Shown here: piece by piece, positions 9,469 through 30,145 of the stretch | Layout: each line of letters opens with the position of its first letter | Position numbering within the stretch: position 1 is the first letter of the stretch | Origin: an uncultured Gammaproteobacteria bacterium | GTDB lineage: Bacteria; Pseudomonadota; Gammaproteobacteria; UBA4575 | NCBI GenBank assembly: GCA_963926275.1 | Contig: CAWUWP010000117.1 | Span: 1-37,726 of the forward strand | Length of the DNA stretch: 37,726 nucleotides | Direction: 5' to 3' | Notes under the pieces: generated by a model | Databases searched by the model: none | What the model saw: the letters and a program-made list of their open reading frames with translations, nothing else | Told to the model about the DNA's origin: nothing | Made by a program: the position numbers and the translations under genes

Positions 9469-9900
9469 TTGATGTTTCGCTTAATGTTAAGTTTGTTAGT
9501 TTCTGCGCTGAGTGTCTCTGCTGTGTATGCTGATGATAGTTTAATTTCAAAAGCAGCTCCTGATGCTAAAGTATATTTTATTGAACCGTTAGATGGCGCG
9601 CTGGTAAGTAAAACCTTCACGATCAAATTTGGTTTGAGTGGTATGGGTGTCGCCCCCGCAGGCACAGACCGTGAGCATACTGGGCATCATCATATTTTAA
9701 TCGATTTAGACGTACTGCCAGATATGACAGTTCCGTTACCGGCGAATGACCATGTAAAACACTTTGGCGGTGGACAGACAGAAACAACACTTACGTTAGA
9801 GCCCGGCACCCATACACTCCAGTTGCTACTGGGTAACCATATTCACATTCCTCATGATAACCCGATCATGTCAGAAAAAATCACCATTACTGTCGAGTAA
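9469..9900 (+). CDS. DUF4399 domain protein (secreted, His-rich)
   Basis: Signal peptide (LSLLVSALSVSAVYA). HTGHHHILID core and GTHTLQLLLGNHIHIPHD, characteristic of DUF4399. Confidence 0.75.
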   Translation: MMFRLMLSLLVSALSVSAVYADDSLISKAAPDAKVYFIEPLDGALVSKTFTIKFGLSGMGVAPAGTDREHTGHHHILIDLDVLPDMTVPLPANDHVKHFGGGQTETTLTLEPGTHTLQLLLGNHIHIPHDNPIMSEKITITVE

Positions 9901-25001: not shown

Positions 25002-25787
25002 TTACGATTCAGTTTTAGTGTCTATTTTAGTGCCTAGCACGACGTCTTTCTCACGTAGCTGAGTAAGCGTCGTGTGCCCGCCATGCACCACTACATCTTG
25101 TGAGATTGATGGAATCTCTTTGGCGATGGTGAGTAAAATTTCTTCACCTGTTTGAGTCTTGTTGTTAGCCACTAGCTCGACTAGCCGAGCGGTCATTGGG
25201 TTCATTTCCATAAACCCAACCTTATCTTTTTGATCTCTATACACCAAAATAAAAGTCGCTTGTTCTGGAGCAGTCTCGGGTTGGAAGCCCGGTTTTATTT
25301 TATGCACAGGATAATCGTAACGATCAAGTTGCATTAGTGGAGAAAGCACAGGTATTTGCTTGAGCAAGTTGCCATTTTTGTTGATGCCTCCCCACTCTAT
25401 TTCGGCGTCTGAAAACGACAGCATTATTTCTAGCCACTCATAATGGGTGAGCTCTAATAAAAATGCGGGATCTTCTTCCTGTGATTTCCGCTCTTCGTTT
25501 AGATAGATAAGGAATTCTTTGGAGATATCCTTAAAGTATGGCGAATGACTTTTATGTGTCGAGAAAAAATCTCTGACCATTTTGTGCCAAGCATCATCAC
25601 TATAAAGTTTACGTGTGACCGGGAAGCCACTTGCTAAAAAACCTTGTACATTTCTATACAATAAGCCACGGTAGATTTCTAAACGACGATCTTCAATTCC
25701 AGCAGGTGCCGGATTTTTTTCTGGATCTCTTAAGTGCGCAGTAAATTCGTATTGCACATCTTTAAAATTCTTTTGTATTTTAAGCAT
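25002..25787 (-). CDS. DUF2063 family RiPP maturation partner (MbnC/BufC/HvfC-like)
   Basis: Start at MLKIQKNF. The 8-nt ATGCTTAA overlap with the MNIO gene indicates translational coupling. N-terminal ..LEIYRGLLYRNVQGFLASGFPVTRKL.. resembles DUF2063. Confidence 0.75.
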   Translation of the reverse strand: MLKIQKNFKDVQYEFTAHLRDPEKNPAPAGIEDRRLEIYRGLLYRNVQGFLASGFPVTRKLYSDDAWHKMVRDFFSTHKSHSPYFKDISKEFLIYLNEERKSQEEDPAFLLELTHYEWLEIMLSFSDAEIEWGGINKNGNLLKQIPVLSPLMQLDRYDYPVHKIKPGFQPETAPEQATFILVYRDQKDKVGFMEMNPMTARLVELVANNKTQTGEEILLTIAKEIPSISQDVVVHGGHTTLTQLREKDVVLGTKIDTKTES

Positions 25788-26637
25788 GAGCAGATACTGT
25801 GTTAGCAGAATTATTCCATTTCTGCTGTAGCTGACGAATTTGATCAACCTCTTTCATTAGTGCAGGAATTTTGGGGATATTAAAATCTCTTTCTAGCAGC
25901 GTGGGAAATACACCAAACGTTTCATAAGCTTTATCTAGTATTGTCCACACGGGGCCAATTACATTAGCACCATGTGTGTCTATAATTAAATCTTTTGCTT
26001 CATTGTAATGGCCGGCTATATGGCAGTAAGTTATTCGTTGTTTAGGCAGTGATTGTAAAAAAGTGATCGGGTCATATCCATGGTTGACTGAATTCACATA
26101 AATATTATTTACATCTAATAATAATTCGCAATCTGCTTCTTCCAATACTGCTTTAAGGAAATCGATTTCTTCCATTTCTTTGCCAGGGGCTGCGTAGTAA
26201 GACGCATTCTCTATAGCGATGCGTTGGCCAAGAATATCTTGCACCTGTTTGATGCGATCTGCTACGTAATGTACTGCTTCACTGGTGAAGGGGATGGGCA
26301 TTAAGTCATACAAGTGACCTTGGTCTGAACAGTAAGTTAAATGTTCTGTGTATTTGAGAATATTATGCTGCTGCATAAATTTTTTAATGTCATGGATAAA
26401 CTCTAAATCTAAAGGGGTTGGTCCACCGATAGATAAAGATAGACCGTGAGTGACAAAGTCATAACGTTCAGTGTATTCGCGAAAACGTTTCCCTAGTCGC
26501 CCGCCGATTCGGATCCAGTTTTCTGGTGCAACTTCCATGAACTGAACTTGCATAGGATTAACCTCAAGAAGCTCTTCCATCATGTGGCCGCGCCTAAGCC
26601 CTAGACCCGCACCACTTACACAGTATTCATTAGACAT
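25780..26637 (-). CDS. DUF692 / multinuclear non-heme iron oxidative enzyme (MNIO; MbnB/BufB/HvfB-like)
   Basis: 285 aa. GAGLGLRRGH, VQFMEVAPENW, THGLSLSIGG, YTEHLTY, IENASYY, LLLDVNNIYVNS, CHIAGH. This is the TIM-barrel DUF692 motif series. Confidence 0.88.
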   Translation of the reverse strand: MSNEYCVSGAGLGLRRGHMMEELLEVNPMQVQFMEVAPENWIRIGGRLGKRFREYTERYDFVTHGLSLSIGGPTPLDLEFIHDIKKFMQQHNILKYTEHLTYCSDQGHLYDLMPIPFTSEAVHYVADRIKQVQDILGQRIAIENASYYAAPGKEMEEIDFLKAVLEEADCELLLDVNNIYVNSVNHGYDPITFLQSLPKQRITYCHIAGHYNEAKDLIIDTHGANVIGPVWTILDKAYETFGVFPTLLERDFNIPKIPALMKEVDQIRQLQQKWNNSANTVSAHA

Positions 26638-26689: not shown

Positions 26690-27295
26690 CTATCGTTTGT
26701 TGATGAAGTTTAAGTAGTAATCAAGGCTGAAGAATTTACCGGCACCAATGAAAAACAATACTAACAACATAATGAAATAGGTAGTGGCAAACTCGATGCC
26801 ATTATTGAGGGAAACGAAACCACCATTCTCGGTTAACCATGAATAGTTGCCATGTTCTTTTAATATATCTTTAGCGACACCTAATCGCTCCACTGCTTCC
26901 ATGGTTCGCTCTGTTGCAAATAGTCCTGAGCCGGATGAAATTGCTAACCATCCGTTACCAATATGTACAGAGAAAATTGCTACTAACATGGTGGCCATTA
27001 GCGGGATAGATATCCAACGTACTCCGAAGCCAACGAGTAGAAATATTGCGCCTAATACTTCTGTCCAGCCAGCGAGGAAAGCCATGAGTGTTGGCAGTGG
27101 TAATCCAAGGCCCCAATCCGCGTTTCCAAACCAGCTGACAGTTGATTCAAATGGCATAAAGGTTGAGAAATCAATTTTACTTGTACCTGCCATCCAAAAA
27201 ACTGGCACCAGATAAAGGCGTAACGCTAATGGCCCAAGAAAATCTAATACGCGTAGCTTGTCAAAAATTGAATTTATAAAATTAATTATGCCCAT
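26690..27295 (-). CDS. DoxX family integral membrane protein
   Basis: Start at ATG 27295, preceded by GGGAG. LALRLYLVPVFWMAGTSKI and four hydrophobic helices typical of DoxX. Confidence 0.8.
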   Translation of the reverse strand: MGIINFINSIFDKLRVLDFLGPLALRLYLVPVFWMAGTSKIDFSTFMPFESTVSWFGNADWGLGLPLPTLMAFLAGWTEVLGAIFLLVGFGVRWISIPLMATMLVAIFSVHIGNGWLAISSGSGLFATERTMEAVERLGVAKDILKEHGNYSWLTENGGFVSLNNGIEFATTYFIMLLVLFFIGAGKFFSLDYYLNFINKR

Positions 27296-27323
27296 GGTTG
27301 TTACTCCCAAGTTCTAGTTTGTT

Positions 27324-28835
27324 TTAAATATGCACGTATTTTGCTTCACTTGAATACAATTCATCTAGTGGTATTGATCTTCCTTGAGAGTTAACAATAT
27401 ACGCATGTTTTCTGCATAATTGACGAGGCTCTACGACACCACAAGAGTGGGCAATGACTCCTACTTCATAGACCATGTTTTTGACGTAATTACTTACACG
27501 CTGTGCCTTATTTTCTGGATTCAAGCCACTTTGCAGATCTTTGTCATGGGTGGTTATGCCGGTGGGGCAAGTGTTTTTATTGCATTGAAGTGCCTGAATA
27601 CAGCCGATGGAAAACATAAAGCCACGTGCTGATGTAATAAAGTCCGCACCTGTCGCTAGTGCCCATGCGACTTCGACTGGAGTAATTAATTTTCCTGAGG
27701 AGATAACTTTTATGCGATCACGAAGACCGTGTTCTTTTAATTTATTGATGAGTAGAGGCAGGCTTTGTTTTATAGGTAAACCCACGTTGTCCATTAAACT
27801 CATAGGCGCGGCACCTGTTCCTCCGTCTCCGCTATCTAATGTAATATAATCTGGTGCAGATTCTATTCCACGTTGATTTATTAGTTTGAATAGATCATCA
27901 AGCCAATCTCTGGCTCCTAAGACAGTTTTGAATCCTACGGGTTTGCCAGTTATGTCTCGAATTTTTTTTAGCATATCGAGTAATTCCTCAGCCGAACTGA
28001 CATCAATATGTCTATTAGGGCTAATAGAGTCGGCGCCTACAGGGATGCCACGGATTTTGGCAATTTCTTCATTGACTTTGGCGCCAGGTAAAATACCACC
28101 TTTCCCAGGTTTAGCACCTTGAGCAAGTTTTAATTCAAACATTTTCACCTGCTTGTGATCACTTACCGCTTTTAATTTCTCGGTATCTAATTTTCCTTCC
28201 TGATCACGAACACCATATTTTGCGGTGCCGATTTGGAAAACAATATCTGCTCCACCTTCTAGGTGGTAGGGGGATAGACCACCTTCACCGGTATTCATCC
28301 AGCATCCTGCCATGCGCGCACCGTTAGATAGCGCTAGTACAGCAGGTTTAGAAATTGCCCCAAAACTCATTCCTGAAATATTAATGATGGAACGTGTGGT
28401 GTAGGGTTGTTTGCAAGATTGTCCAATGGTGACTTCATGTGGCTCTGCAGAATCAATGCTTAATTTAGGGAAGGGGCAGTTACCAAAAATAATCGTGCCC
28501 GGTTTATAAAGGTCACATGTTGATCCAAATGCAATAGTGGAATCGATATCTTTAGATGCGCGATATACCCAAGATCTTTCTGCTCGATTAAACGGTAACT
28601 CTTCTCGGTCCATGGCAAAAAAATATTGGCGAAAGAATTCGCCCATATGTTCAAAGAGATAACGAAAGCGACCTATGACGGGGTAATTGTGTCGAATCGC
28701 TTGCTTTGTCTGTGAGCGATCAATGACATATAAAACAGCGACAAGAATAATGCCTGCGCCAATGATGAAAATAAATAGGAATGCTAAAATTTCAAGGGTG
28801 GTTAATGCGAATGTGGATATTTCATACATTTCCAT
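27324..28835 (-). CDS. Membrane-anchored FMN-binding glutamate synthase-domain (GltS FMN domain/YerD-like) oxidoreductase
   Basis: 503 aa. N-terminal TM helix (LEILAFLFIFIIGAGIILVAVLYVI). ISGMSFGAIS, NTGEGG, KLAQGAKPGKGGILPG, SPNRH, ITLDSGDGGTGAAP. Confidence 0.85.
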   Translation of the reverse strand: MEMYEISTFALTTLEILAFLFIFIIGAGIILVAVLYVIDRSQTKQAIRHNYPVIGRFRYLFEHMGEFFRQYFFAMDREELPFNRAERSWVYRASKDIDSTIAFGSTCDLYKPGTIIFGNCPFPKLSIDSAEPHEVTIGQSCKQPYTTRSIINISGMSFGAISKPAVLALSNGARMAGCWMNTGEGGLSPYHLEGGADIVFQIGTAKYGVRDQEGKLDTEKLKAVSDHKQVKMFELKLAQGAKPGKGGILPGAKVNEEIAKIRGIPVGADSISPNRHIDVSSAEELLDMLKKIRDITGKPVGFKTVLGARDWLDDLFKLINQRGIESAPDYITLDSGDGGTGAAPMSLMDNVGLPIKQSLPLLINKLKEHGLRDRIKVISSGKLITPVEVAWALATGADFITSARGFMFSIGCIQALQCNKNTCPTGITTHDKDLQSGLNPENKAQRVSNYVKNMVYEVGVIAHSCGVVEPRQLCRKHAYIVNSQGRSIPLDELYSSEAKYVHI

Positions 28836-28886
28836 TGGGACTCTCCAGCGTCTTATATTCGATACTTATTATATAACGTTAGGCGC

Positions 28887-28921
28887 AAAAAAAAATGGCG
28901 GGTCCTATTAAGGATCCCGCC
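28887..28921 (-). terminator. Rho-independent terminator downstream of the precursor-peptide gene
   Basis: On the minus strand: ggcgggatcc-ttaata-ggacccgcc followed by nine T. Confidence 0.8.
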
Positions 28922-28927
28922 GTTCCG

Positions 28928-28964
28928 ACACACTAGATTCGATAGCAACTAGAATCTAGTGTGT
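28928..28964 (-). other. Perfect 13-bp stem hairpin in the precursor 3' UTR
   Basis: acacactagattc (28928-28940) pairs perfectly with gaatctagtgtgt (28952-28964). 11-nt loop. Confidence 0.7.
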
Positions 28965-29005
28965 TGGTATCAATGCTGACACCTGTGGGGCTTGGTCGGT
29001 TGGGA

Positions 29006-29299
29006 TTAGCTCTCGCCGCACTTACCTTCACCACACTTACCTTCTTCCATTTTTTCGGCAGCAGCTTCACCTTCACCACATTTACCTTCACCACATTTAC
29101 CTTCTTCCATTTTTTCGGCAGCAGCTTTACCTTCGCCACATTTACCTTCTTCCATTTCAGCAACCATGTAGCCAGAAGAAAGCTCAGTTAAATCAAATGG
29201 GTTTGCATCAGCATTAGCAATAGGCATAGCCATTACACTTACTGTTAGAGCAGCGGCAACTGCTGCAGCGATGGGCTTAAGTTCAAATTTCTTAGACAT
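29006..29299 (-). CDS. Sec-exported RiPP precursor peptide with five EGKCGE motifs (HvfA/bufferin-like metallophore precursor)
   Basis: GGAG Shine-Dalgarno. Signal peptide MSKKFELKPIAAAVAAALTVSVMAMPIANA|DA. Acidic core ..EMEEGKCGEGKAAAEKMEEGKCGEGKCGEGEAAAEKMEEGKCGEGKCGES. Every Cys lies in EGKCGE. Confidence 0.85.
   Translation of the reverse strand: MSKKFELKPIAAAVAAALTVSVMAMPIANADANPFDLTELSSGYMVAEMEEGKCGEGKAAAEKMEEGKCGEGKCGEGEAAAEKMEEGKCGEGKCGES
29009..29158 (-). repeat. About 2.5 copies of a 60-bp in-frame tandem repeat encoding EKMEEGKCGEGKCGEGEAAA
   Basis: cttcttccattttttcggcagcagc recurs exactly 60 nt apart (29041 and 29101). The repeat lies inside the precursor CDS. Confidence 0.9.
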
Positions 29300-29411
29300 T
29301 TACTTTCTCCGTACTTGTTTATTTATGTGTTACTTAAAATTTTTGTTCAATTGTTGCTTCCTGACTATAAAGACCCTAGGTAGTGAGTTTATATTACAAG
29401 TTATAAGCACA

Positions 29412-29446
29412 AACCATTACCTTGCTATAAATAAGGTGAAATGGTT
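29412..29446. promoter_or_regulatory. Imperfect 35-bp inverted repeat between nth and the precursor gene
   Basis: aaccattacctt-gctataaat-aaggtgaaatggtt. Arms match except for a 2-nt bulge. Centred on an AT-rich TATAAA-like core about 130 bp upstream of the precursor ATG. Confidence 0.4.
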
Positions 29447-29512
29447 GCGGTTTTTAGAGTGAATAAAAACTATTGAGTTCCCACCCTATCTGATGATACC
29501 GGTATAACTTGA

Positions 29513-30145
29513 TCAGCCAGCTTTTTTAGAAAATTCACATAGATCATATATTGTACAAATTGTGCATTTGGGTTTGCGAGCAATGCAAGTATAACGACCA
29601 TGTAATATCAGCCAATGATGGGCATCGCGCTTAAATTCCTCAGGGACTAAACGTAGTAAACGTTTTTCTACCTCGATTACATTTTTGCCAGGAGCGATTC
29701 CGGTTCTATTGGACACCCTATATATATGAGTGTCGACGGCGATGGTGGGGTGTCCAAATGCTGTATTTAACACCACGTTGGCCGTTTTTCGTCCAACACC
29801 AGGTAGGGCCTCTAATGCGTCACGATTTTCTGGGACATGAGCATTATGTTTATCCATCAGAATTTTACAGGTATTAATAATGTTTTTAGCTTTTGTGTTG
29901 TAAAGACCGATGGTTTTCACATAGGCTTTCAATTTTTTCTCACCTAAGCTAAAAATTGCTTCAGGTGTGTTGGCAGCCTTAAACAGTGGGCCAATAGCTT
30001 TATTGACACTAATGTCAGTGGCTTGTGCCGACAGAATGACGGCAATGAGCAATTCAAAATTATTGCTATAGTTAAGCTCGGTCGTGGGATGTGGATTCAG
30101 TTCGCGTAAGCGGCTAAAAATTTCTGTGCGTTTAGTTTTGTTCAC
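29513..30145 (-). CDS. nth: Endonuclease III
   Basis: HhH-GPD (LEALPGVGRKTANVVLN, AVDTHI). C-terminal 4Fe-4S loop CIARKPKCTICTIYDLC. Confidence 0.95.
   Translation of the reverse strand: MNKTKRTEIFSRLRELNPHPTTELNYSNNFELLIAVILSAQATDISVNKAIGPLFKAANTPEAIFSLGEKKLKAYVKTIGLYNTKAKNIINTCKILMDKHNAHVPENRDALEALPGVGRKTANVVLNTAFGHPTIAVDTHIYRVSNRTGIAPGKNVIEVEKRLLRLVPEEFKRDAHHWLILHGRYTCIARKPKCTICTIYDLCEFSKKAG

Follow-up and report, generated by a model that had tools for sequence, protein, structure and literature searches.

We analysed a 37,726-nt stretch of DNA from an uncultured marine gammaproteobacterium (contig CAWUWP010000117.1, assembly GCA_963926275.1; hereafter the window) and focused on hvfA, a minus-strand gene at 29006-29299 that carries an in-frame tandem repeat. 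This gene very probably encodes a Sec-exported precursor whose EGKCG cysteines are converted into Cu(I)-binding 5-thiooxazoles by the enzyme pair HvfBC, with the number of these sites changing through slippage or recombination of the repeat. An earlier note on this DNA had proposed a modular Cys-rich precursor for modifying enzymes, and this was borne out by a curated family domain model and by the presence of hvfB, hvfC and hvfX downstream on the same strand. The same note had expected strains to differ in site number, and alleles with three, five and six Cys were indeed found on near-identical contigs. The hvfA family has been intensively studied since 2024 and the window gene is an ordinary member of it. 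The main value of the analysis is a correct annotation: an uncultured marine gammaproteobacterium encodes a copper-binding thiooxazole peptide precursor together with the maturases for it.

The precursor, its repeat and its gene cluster

The gene and the parts of its product are as follows (RiPP, ribosomally synthesised and post-translationally modified peptide; ORF, open reading frame):

29006..29299 (-), hvfA, 97-aa precursor of an HvfA/oxazolin-type (Buf_EGKCG, 'captophorin') RiPP metallophore, from the ORF and model NF050137
29210..29299 (-), predicted Sec-type signal peptide, residues 1-30 (MSKKFELKP, a hydrophobic core and A-N-A)
29159..29209 (-), follower segment, residues 31-47, DANPFDLTELSSGYMVA, delimited by conservation in homologues
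29009..29158 (-), repeat core, residues 48-97, five EGKCG motifs arranged 1+2+2
29013-29072 and 29073-29132 (-), two full 60-nt tandem units, from a repeat search
up to ~29157 (-), partial third copy of the 60-nt unit, with an indel

The ORF at 29006-29299 (-) translates to MSKKFELKPIAAAVAAALTVSVMAMPIANADANPFDLTELSSGYMVAEMEEGKCGEGKAAAEKMEEGKCGEGKCGEGEAAAEKMEEGKCGEGKCGES. Tandem Repeats Finder placed a period-60 array at 29022-29149 (2.1 copies, 95% matches, score 235; 2.3 copies when read on the gene strand) and a nested period-15 reading of the same array (9.1 copies, 67%). These were the sole arrays scoring >50 in the window. The two full units were 92% identical in the repeat search, with 5 mismatches (95% matches by Tandem Repeats Finder), and the two methods together confirmed the 60-nt in-frame unit of the earlier note. 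Its figure of at least 25 nt of identity at 60-nt spacing also stood, as the longest exact stretch was 31 nt. At the protein level, the repeat resolves into module 1, AEMEEGKCGEGKAAA (15 aa, the unit minus one GEGKC), module 2, EKMEEGKCGEGKCGEGEAAA (20 aa), and module 3, EKMEEGKCGEGKCGES (16 aa, ended by the stop codon), for which 'about 2.5 copies' is a fair description.

The core is composed of E, G, K, A, C, M and S only, and each of the five Cys of the product stands in an EGKCGE context, the sole context that had been claimed for them. The back-translated EGKCG pattern, GARGGNAARTGYGG, occurred five times in the window, every time within hvfA, against a chance expectation of 0.02 per window; five occurrences were reached in 0/100 shuffles. 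Two ORFs in alternative frames, 28933-29163 (-) and 28961-29191 (+), have repetitive translations (KVNVVKV... and FTFTTFTF...) and lie entirely over the repeat, and were correctly regarded as its shadows. Two homologues (P0020 and P0040) had a normal leader and first motifs followed by Lys/Ala/Val-rich tails, and the tail of P0040 (...KVNAAK...) resembled the +1 shadow frame of the repeat. Such frameshifted tails, which are either frameshift alleles or sequencing errors, occurred in only 2/120 homologues.

Upstream of the core, the leader is conserved across 200 hvfA homologues. Residues 1-30 comprise a Lys-rich N-terminus and a hydrophobic stretch, with Kyte-Doolittle 15-residue windows >1.6 beginning at residues 7-14. 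A30 was invariant and the AxA pattern was kept in 45 homologues, pointing to cleavage after A30. This signal peptide call was made with sequence rules only, and by these rules the protein carries the Sec signal peptide that is expected of the HvfA family in place of a classical RiPP leader; that of Haemophilus influenzae HvfA has been experimentally shown (PMC11252979). In the follower, N33, P34, F35, S41, S42 and G43 were invariant across 45 diverse homologues and L40, Y44 and M45 nearly so. This segment (NPF...LSSGYM) is likely the docking region for the RiPP recognition element (RRE) of HvfC. The AlphaFold2 model, built from a 15-sequence alignment, was unusable (mean pLDDT 47, pTM 0.13), showing a helix for the signal peptide only, and pLDDT was <50 for residues 50-97, i.e. 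no fold was predicted for the core. Searching PDB sequences with the precursor yielded no match up to E = 1, and a Pfam search with it found nothing significant.

Family membership was supported by NF050137, the NCBIfam domain model of the HvfA family (KCGExKCG_twice; 'HvfA family oxazolone/thioamide-modified RiPP metallophore'), which scored 51.3 bits against a cutoff of 19.5 with three matched stretches. Members of this family carry at least two adjacent C-terminal (E)GKCG motifs, of which the window protein has two adjacent pairs among its five. They also adjoin genes for an hvfB-type multinuclear non-haem iron oxidative enzyme (MNIO) and hvfC, usually with DoxX/HvfX, and all of these were found on one strand within 4.3 kb, together with a Glu_synthase-like gene:

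27324..28835 (-), Glu_synthase-like protein, 503 aa (PF01645, 299.7 bits)
26690..27310 (-), hvfX, DoxX-family membrane protein (NF050144, 220.7 against a cutoff of 80; PF07681)
25780..26637 (-), hvfB, MNIO maturase (NF003818, 442.2 against 360, full model; PF05114, 343.9 bits)
25002..25787 (-), hvfC, DUF2063/RRE partner (NF050145, 303.7 against 142; PF09836 and PF22106)

As HvfX, HvfB and HvfC all exceeded their curated cutoffs on the same strand as hvfA, we regard this as a complete hvf-type RiPP cluster. Adjacency of hvfA-like genes to hvfB and hvfC recurred in 58/80 species-level loci, all from uncultured Gammaproteobacteria or relatives and retrieved in a genome scan with a 15-sequence alignment. 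One of these loci (L046) had two hvfA-like genes (2408 and 4164; 88 and 79 aa), separated by ~1.7 kb and lying upstream of just one hvfB-hvfC pair.

Two other classes of MNIO product were considered and rejected. Bufferin Buf1 was set aside as there was no DUF2282 Pfam match and the BufB model reached 260.1 against a cutoff of 310. Methanobactin was set aside because the MbnB model gave 48 bits against a cutoff of 325 and the precursor has a signal peptide and repeats. Both bufferins (Buf1/DUF2282 and Buf2) and methanobactin resemble the present system in having MNIO-modified, Cys-derived copper-binding heterocycles, and bufferins further share Sec signal peptides and DoxX/DUF2063 partners. 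Methanobactin differs in its leader peptide, oxazolone/thioamide chemistry and small core without repeats.

The closest described counterpart is H. influenzae hvfXABC, the system that gave its name to the NCBIfam models passed by HvfX, HvfB and HvfC of the window. HvfA of non-typeable H. influenzae is a 95-aa protein with a Sec signal peptide and three AEGKCGEGKCG motifs, whose six Cys are modified by HvfB and HvfC (PMC11252979). The likeness to the window extends over length (~95-97 aa), Sec signal, C-terminal EGKCGEGKCG repeats and an HvfB/HvfC/HvfX cluster. The window protein differs in its five Cys (1+2+2), compared to 3x2 plus an N-terminal disulfide pair in HvfA. Its gene order also differs, with an extra Glu_synthase-like gene between hvfA and hvfX, and its host is an uncultured marine gammaproteobacterium rather than a pathogen. 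The EGKCG-type 'captophorins' fontiphorin (FonA), gonophorin (NgoA) and MmrA of Microbulbifer likewise carry EGKCG 5-mer repeats that are converted to copper-binding 5-thiooxazoles by MNIO-PME1 pairs (PMC12668002, PMC12538549). In the survey of Leprevost et al. 2025 (PMC12452194), the Buf_EGKCG/oxazolin family was given a fixed period of 17, whereas the period in the window is 20 aa. The family has already been described and named, and a variable number of EGKCG motifs has been published at the family and genus level (PMC12452194, PMC12538549). With both the motif and its variable repeat number in the literature, this kind of object is already known.

Variation in site number within a population and across species

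Contigs nearly identical to the window, all of them short-read metagenome assemblies, carried three alleles of hvfA (loci are given as L numbers):

102 aa, 6 Cys, one 15-nt unit more than the window (L001-L004)
97 aa, 5 Cys, the window allele, with no difference in gene DNA (L087-L090, other samples)
77 aa, 3 Cys, shorter by exactly one 60-nt unit, two junction variants (L091, a TARA Oceans scaffold, and L092-L094)

L001-L004 were 98.6-99.8% identical to the window (BLAST, with the 15-nt gap scored as non-identity). Besides this gap and a 1-nt homopolymer difference, they had 0-5 mismatches over 1.2-12.3 kb. L001 matched the window at 99.83% over 12.3 kb, with the 15-nt insertion as the sole difference in hvfA. 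The extra unit of the 6-Cys allele occurred in two synonymous forms, AAATGTGGT and AAGTGCGGT. The flanks of L091-L094 were 99.4-99.9% identical to the window. The earlier expectation that the 60-nt unit varies therefore held and needed extension, as the 15-nt sub-repeat varies as well. Elsewhere in the family, clusters at 90% identity varied in size too, the steps being mostly 5, 10, 15 or 20 aa.

This variation has a precedent in Microbulbifer, where the leader is likewise conserved and the number of EGKCG Cys ranges from five to eight between strains (PMC12538549). The reports on FonA, NgoA and MmrA concern species or strains of cultured genera, whereas the alleles described here come from one near-clonal (>99.4% identical) environmental population. 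The resolution of single 15-nt and 60-nt events on such a background goes slightly beyond the literature. It also provides a natural allelic series of 3, 5 and 6 sites for relating site number to copper capacity.

Across the 80 species loci, the core held 3-12 Cys behind a conserved leader. The comparison of copy number that the earlier note had called for thus showed a number that is not invariant and an EGKCG motif that stays intact. Repeat periods were 15 nt, or 30-99 nt for larger units, all of them multiples of 3 except for one weak period-16 call, and the top arrays were mostly 80-100% self-identical within a gene. Larger units among relatives comprised 10 to 33 aa, with a 5-aa unit nested inside them, and spacers were uniform inside a protein and different between species. 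Taken together, these features indicate repeated, recent, lineage-specific duplication, loss or homogenisation.

In these respects hvfA behaves as a size-variable in-frame tandem repeat (variable number tandem repeat, VNTR), with the caveat that its alleles were read from short-read assemblies. It resembles VNTR-like secreted or surface proteins of bacteria in its multiple-of-3 units, whole-unit alleles among close strains and within-gene homogenisation. It differs from them in that the repeat encodes substrate sites for a RiPP maturase, not antigenic or adhesive modules, and in having no on/off tract. An on/off phase-variable locus was accordingly rejected, since periods are multiples of 3 (bar the weak period-16) and alleles differ by 15 or 60 nt.

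A pair of EF-hand Ca-binding loops (DADGDG...) stood between EGKCG modules at L023, L025, L042-L044, L049, L058, L069, L076, L077 and L085, and in protein P0044. These carriers kept the same signal peptide and follower as other HvfA relatives, and are related to, and not identical with, the 'second type' of PMC12452194.

Predicted chemistry and the meaning of site number

For the chemistry, export and Cu(I) binding we draw on characterised homologues. The conversion of Cys into 5-thiooxazole (-4 Da each) and the binding of Cu(I) have been shown there (PMC11252979, PMC12668002, 10.64898/2026.06.05.730506). The modification was first named oxazolone/thioamide and has since been reassigned to 5-thiooxazole (bioRxiv 10.64898/2026.06.05.730506; PMC12668002). 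Fontiphorin and gonophorin have also been characterised (PMC12668002). By analogy, the 97-aa precursor would be made with its Sec signal peptide (residues 1-30) and conserved follower, and in the cytoplasm the HvfB(MNIO)-HvfC complex would oxidise each EGKCG Cys by four electrons to a 5-thiooxazole. The product would then be exported via Sec and bind Cu(I), at about one ion per two heterocycles. Transcription may start from a stress-responsive promoter of the extracytoplasmic function (ECF) sigma type. The 15-nt unit nested in the 60-nt unit would gain or lose copies by slippage or unequal recombination, which would explain how co-existing strains of one marine population come to carry 3-, 5- and 6-site alleles.

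Two claims of the earlier note bear on this chemistry. It had spoken of 'Cys (metal) sites', of which the sites stand, whereas the ligands would be Cys-derived 5-thiooxazoles binding about one Cu(I) per two, and not free Cys. It had also supposed a very simple recognition motif for the modifying enzymes, which agrees with published HvfBC and FonBC enzymology (PMC11252979, PMC12668002). HvfBC still acts on truncated or short HvfA fragments (PMC11252979), and FonBC tolerates most substitutions, requiring the Cys, a small following residue and no Pro (PMC12668002).

Several points weigh against the reading of hvfA as a modified, exported copper-binding precursor of variable capacity. Judged by domain-model scores, the window protein is a member of the HvfA family and not an orthologue of H. 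influenzae HvfA, as the strict equivalog model NF050188 (H. influenzae type) gave 54.5 bits against a cutoff of 95. Its own modification, export and Cu binding are predictions from homology. FonBC modified a two-repeat substrate in vitro and not a one-repeat substrate (PMC12668002). Given this need and the lone first motif (Cys54) of the window protein, perhaps only 4/5 Cys would be converted. Short-read assembly makes a collapse artefact possible for the 60-nt deletion alleles. ECF control of hvfA may be suggested by a single motif (described below), and a consensus promoter/terminator scanner detected no sigma-70 promoter upstream of the gene.

How far the differences in site number matter to the cell is a separate question. 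They may be real and selectively neutral, the product of fast-mutating repeat DNA, with selection keeping only the frame and the EGKCG motif and no tuning of capacity; we consider this a serious contender, somewhat short of an even chance. It accords with motifs that stay intact and periods that are multiples of 3 (the weak period-16 aside) while module number, spacer and period vary freely between species, and with the presence of three allele sizes together in one population. However, modified HvfA binds about one Cu(I) per two modifications (PMC11252979), so that in this homologue site number sets the maximum Cu(I) stoichiometry, and the alleles would not be strictly equivalent per molecule. 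This published stoichiometry is also what underlies the 'tunable capacity' of the earlier note, which as an adaptive property we can only infer. Neutral instability and selected tuning appear about as likely as each other.

A broader reading is more doubtful, and we offer it tentatively. Here, hvfA would be a hypervariable in-frame repeat locus whose standing 3/5/6-site variation is selected by copper or oxidative stress. In addition, a membrane-anchored oxidoreductase with flavin mononucleotide (FMN) and [3Fe-4S] centres, the Glu_synthase-like protein, would be a hitherto undescribed component of the cluster, paired with DoxX/HvfX. It would be the physiological source of reducing equivalents that bring HvfBC to its active mixed-valent iron state, or would act at the membrane on Cu(II)/Cu(I) or thiol redox. 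That the number of sites affects fitness at all is a supposition.

It is rather unlikely that the precursor is multi-core, with a protease releasing modules and repeat number giving the count of small metallophores instead of the capacity of one chelator. The regular spacers between modules (GEAAAEKME here; ESKAE, DKKK and GEGE elsewhere) and the predicted disorder of the core would suit it, and the literature is undecided between a single polypeptide and smaller peptides as the mature product (PMC12668002). However, no protease gene was found in the window cluster or in that of Microbulbifer (PMC12538549), the spacers are not conserved across species as a cleavage site would be expected to be, and oxazolin produced in a heterologous host is one modified polypeptide (PMC11252979).

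We judge it improbable, too, that short-read assembly of a tandem repeat generated some of the allelic differences (the 60-nt deletions, or 5- versus 6-Cys). The population contigs are without exception of this kind (names k119/k127/k141, the TARA scaffold, Logan), the 60-nt units share the 31-nt exact stretch and, at one homopolymer, the window is 1 nt different from all the other contigs. Nevertheless, 3-5 independent assemblies, differing in sample and assembler, gave each allele, and in most of them the final k-mers were longer than the repeat (137 nt). Collapse, moreover, cannot yield an insertion allele, and a 15-nt array of 5.5 copies is present in a sister species whose chromosome (L005/L008) is a hifiasm-style long-read assembly.

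Finally, we find it very hard to credit a metallothionein-like periplasmic protein that binds metal through unmodified Cys thiolates, next to MNIO genes that serve another substrate, although HvfA binds copper in vitro even without modification (PMC11252979). Such a reading conflicts with the recurrent adjacency to hvfB and hvfC noted above, with the modification of all four tested EGKCG precursors (HvfA, FonA, NgoA and MmrA) by their own MNIO pairs (PMC11252979, PMC12668002, PMC12538549) and with the lack of any other Cys-rich candidate substrate in the window.

A Glu_synthase-like neighbour and expression signals

The hvf cluster is flanked by housekeeping genes, namely nth, an rnfB-like ferredoxin gene and metG on one side, and an isocitrate-dehydrogenase family gene and rimO on the other. 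The order metG, rnfB-like, nth, hvfA, GltS-like, hvfX, hvfB, hvfC was repeated in related genomes. The endonuclease III gene nth stood directly upstream of hvfA in 45/80 species loci, across distant gammaproteobacterial lineages. Gene starts differed slightly between sources. On related contigs, gene callers placed the start of hvfX at ~27295 (L001 gene call). The mechanical ORF of hvfC extends to a TTG at 25847, 68 nt within hvfB, while the hvfC called on related contigs (L001) encodes 261 aa with an 8-nt overlap with hvfB, an overlap that suggests translational coupling.

The Glu_synthase-like gene was found inside the hvf cluster in 22/80 species loci, with 63-89% identity to the window protein, and adjoined hvfX in 21/21 loci having both, in the orders A-G-X-B-C, A-B-C-G-X and A-B-C-X-G. 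Its occurrences were:

L005-L010, L012, L014-L016, L022, L033-L036, L044, L055, L058, L067-L069, L073, L078 and L079

Its product combines an N-terminal membrane anchor, seen in the hydropathy profile, with an FMN domain and a C-x5-C-x4-CP motif at residue 412 that resembles the [3Fe-4S] site, and its best PDB matches were to the FMN domain of glutamate synthase large subunits. Such genes were absent from the main texts of two family surveys, including PMC12452194, which lists oxidored_molybd and ferric-reductase genes as occasional cluster extras. The 10-bp intergenic rule of that survey would exclude the window gene, which lies 13 bp from hvfX. Among the papers searched, none combined DoxX, glutamate synthase and MNIO. 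In vitro, HvfBC requires an artificial reductant to reach the active mixed-valent state, for which only dithiothreitol or ascorbate is known. Given this need, a redox protein encoded in the cluster is a reasonable candidate for an accessory partner. The recurrence of this flavoprotein gene beside hvfX offers a lead on what DoxX/HvfX does, and its product is a candidate for the reductant of the MNIO in the cell.

The following expression signals were identified around hvfA (UTR, untranslated region):

29307..29310 (-), GGAG as Shine-Dalgarno sequence, 7 nt before the ATG
29454..29481 (-), candidate promoter of the ECF/sigma-E type, GGAACT-N17-TCTAA, ~155 nt upstream of hvfA
28928..28983 (-), 3' UTR of hvfA, another two hairpins (one at 28966-28983, the other with a perfect 13-bp stem at 28928-28964)
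28887..28921 (-), intrinsic terminator 3' of hvfA (GC-rich stem-loop at 28897-28921, then a U9 tract at 28887-28895)

In an alignment of seven species, ACGGAGA around the Shine-Dalgarno sequence was invariant, as were GGAACT and CTCTAA upstream. The GGAACT-N17-TCTAA motif was equally placed in L005, L007-L013 and L067. Two matches to it occurred in the window against 0.08 expected, and the second exact match, at 9706-9734 (-), had no obvious target gene. The motif resembles the consensus of ECF/sigma-E promoters, and this assignment is a lead only.

At the 3' end, the fold of the RNA downstream of the hvfA stop reached -47.6 kcal/mol (z = -5.3), a stability equalled in 0/200 shuffles. The simple scanner missed the terminator because of an internal mismatch. 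An Rfam search of 28700-29700 returned sub-threshold chance hits only and no known riboswitch or small RNA. The architecture of three hairpins and a U tract was present in five related species and the terminator in a sixth (L005, L006, L007, L009, L010 and L012). The hairpins at 28928-28983, which have equivalents in related species, possibly stabilise the transcript. The U tract of the terminator has 9 T in the window and 8 in 8/8 population contigs (L001-L004 and L087-L090), which could be either a homopolymer error or a real polymorphism. With a terminator of its own, hvfA is probably transcribed separately and abundantly, with some transcripts reading through into the genes for the enzymes, so that precursor mRNA would exceed that of the enzymes.

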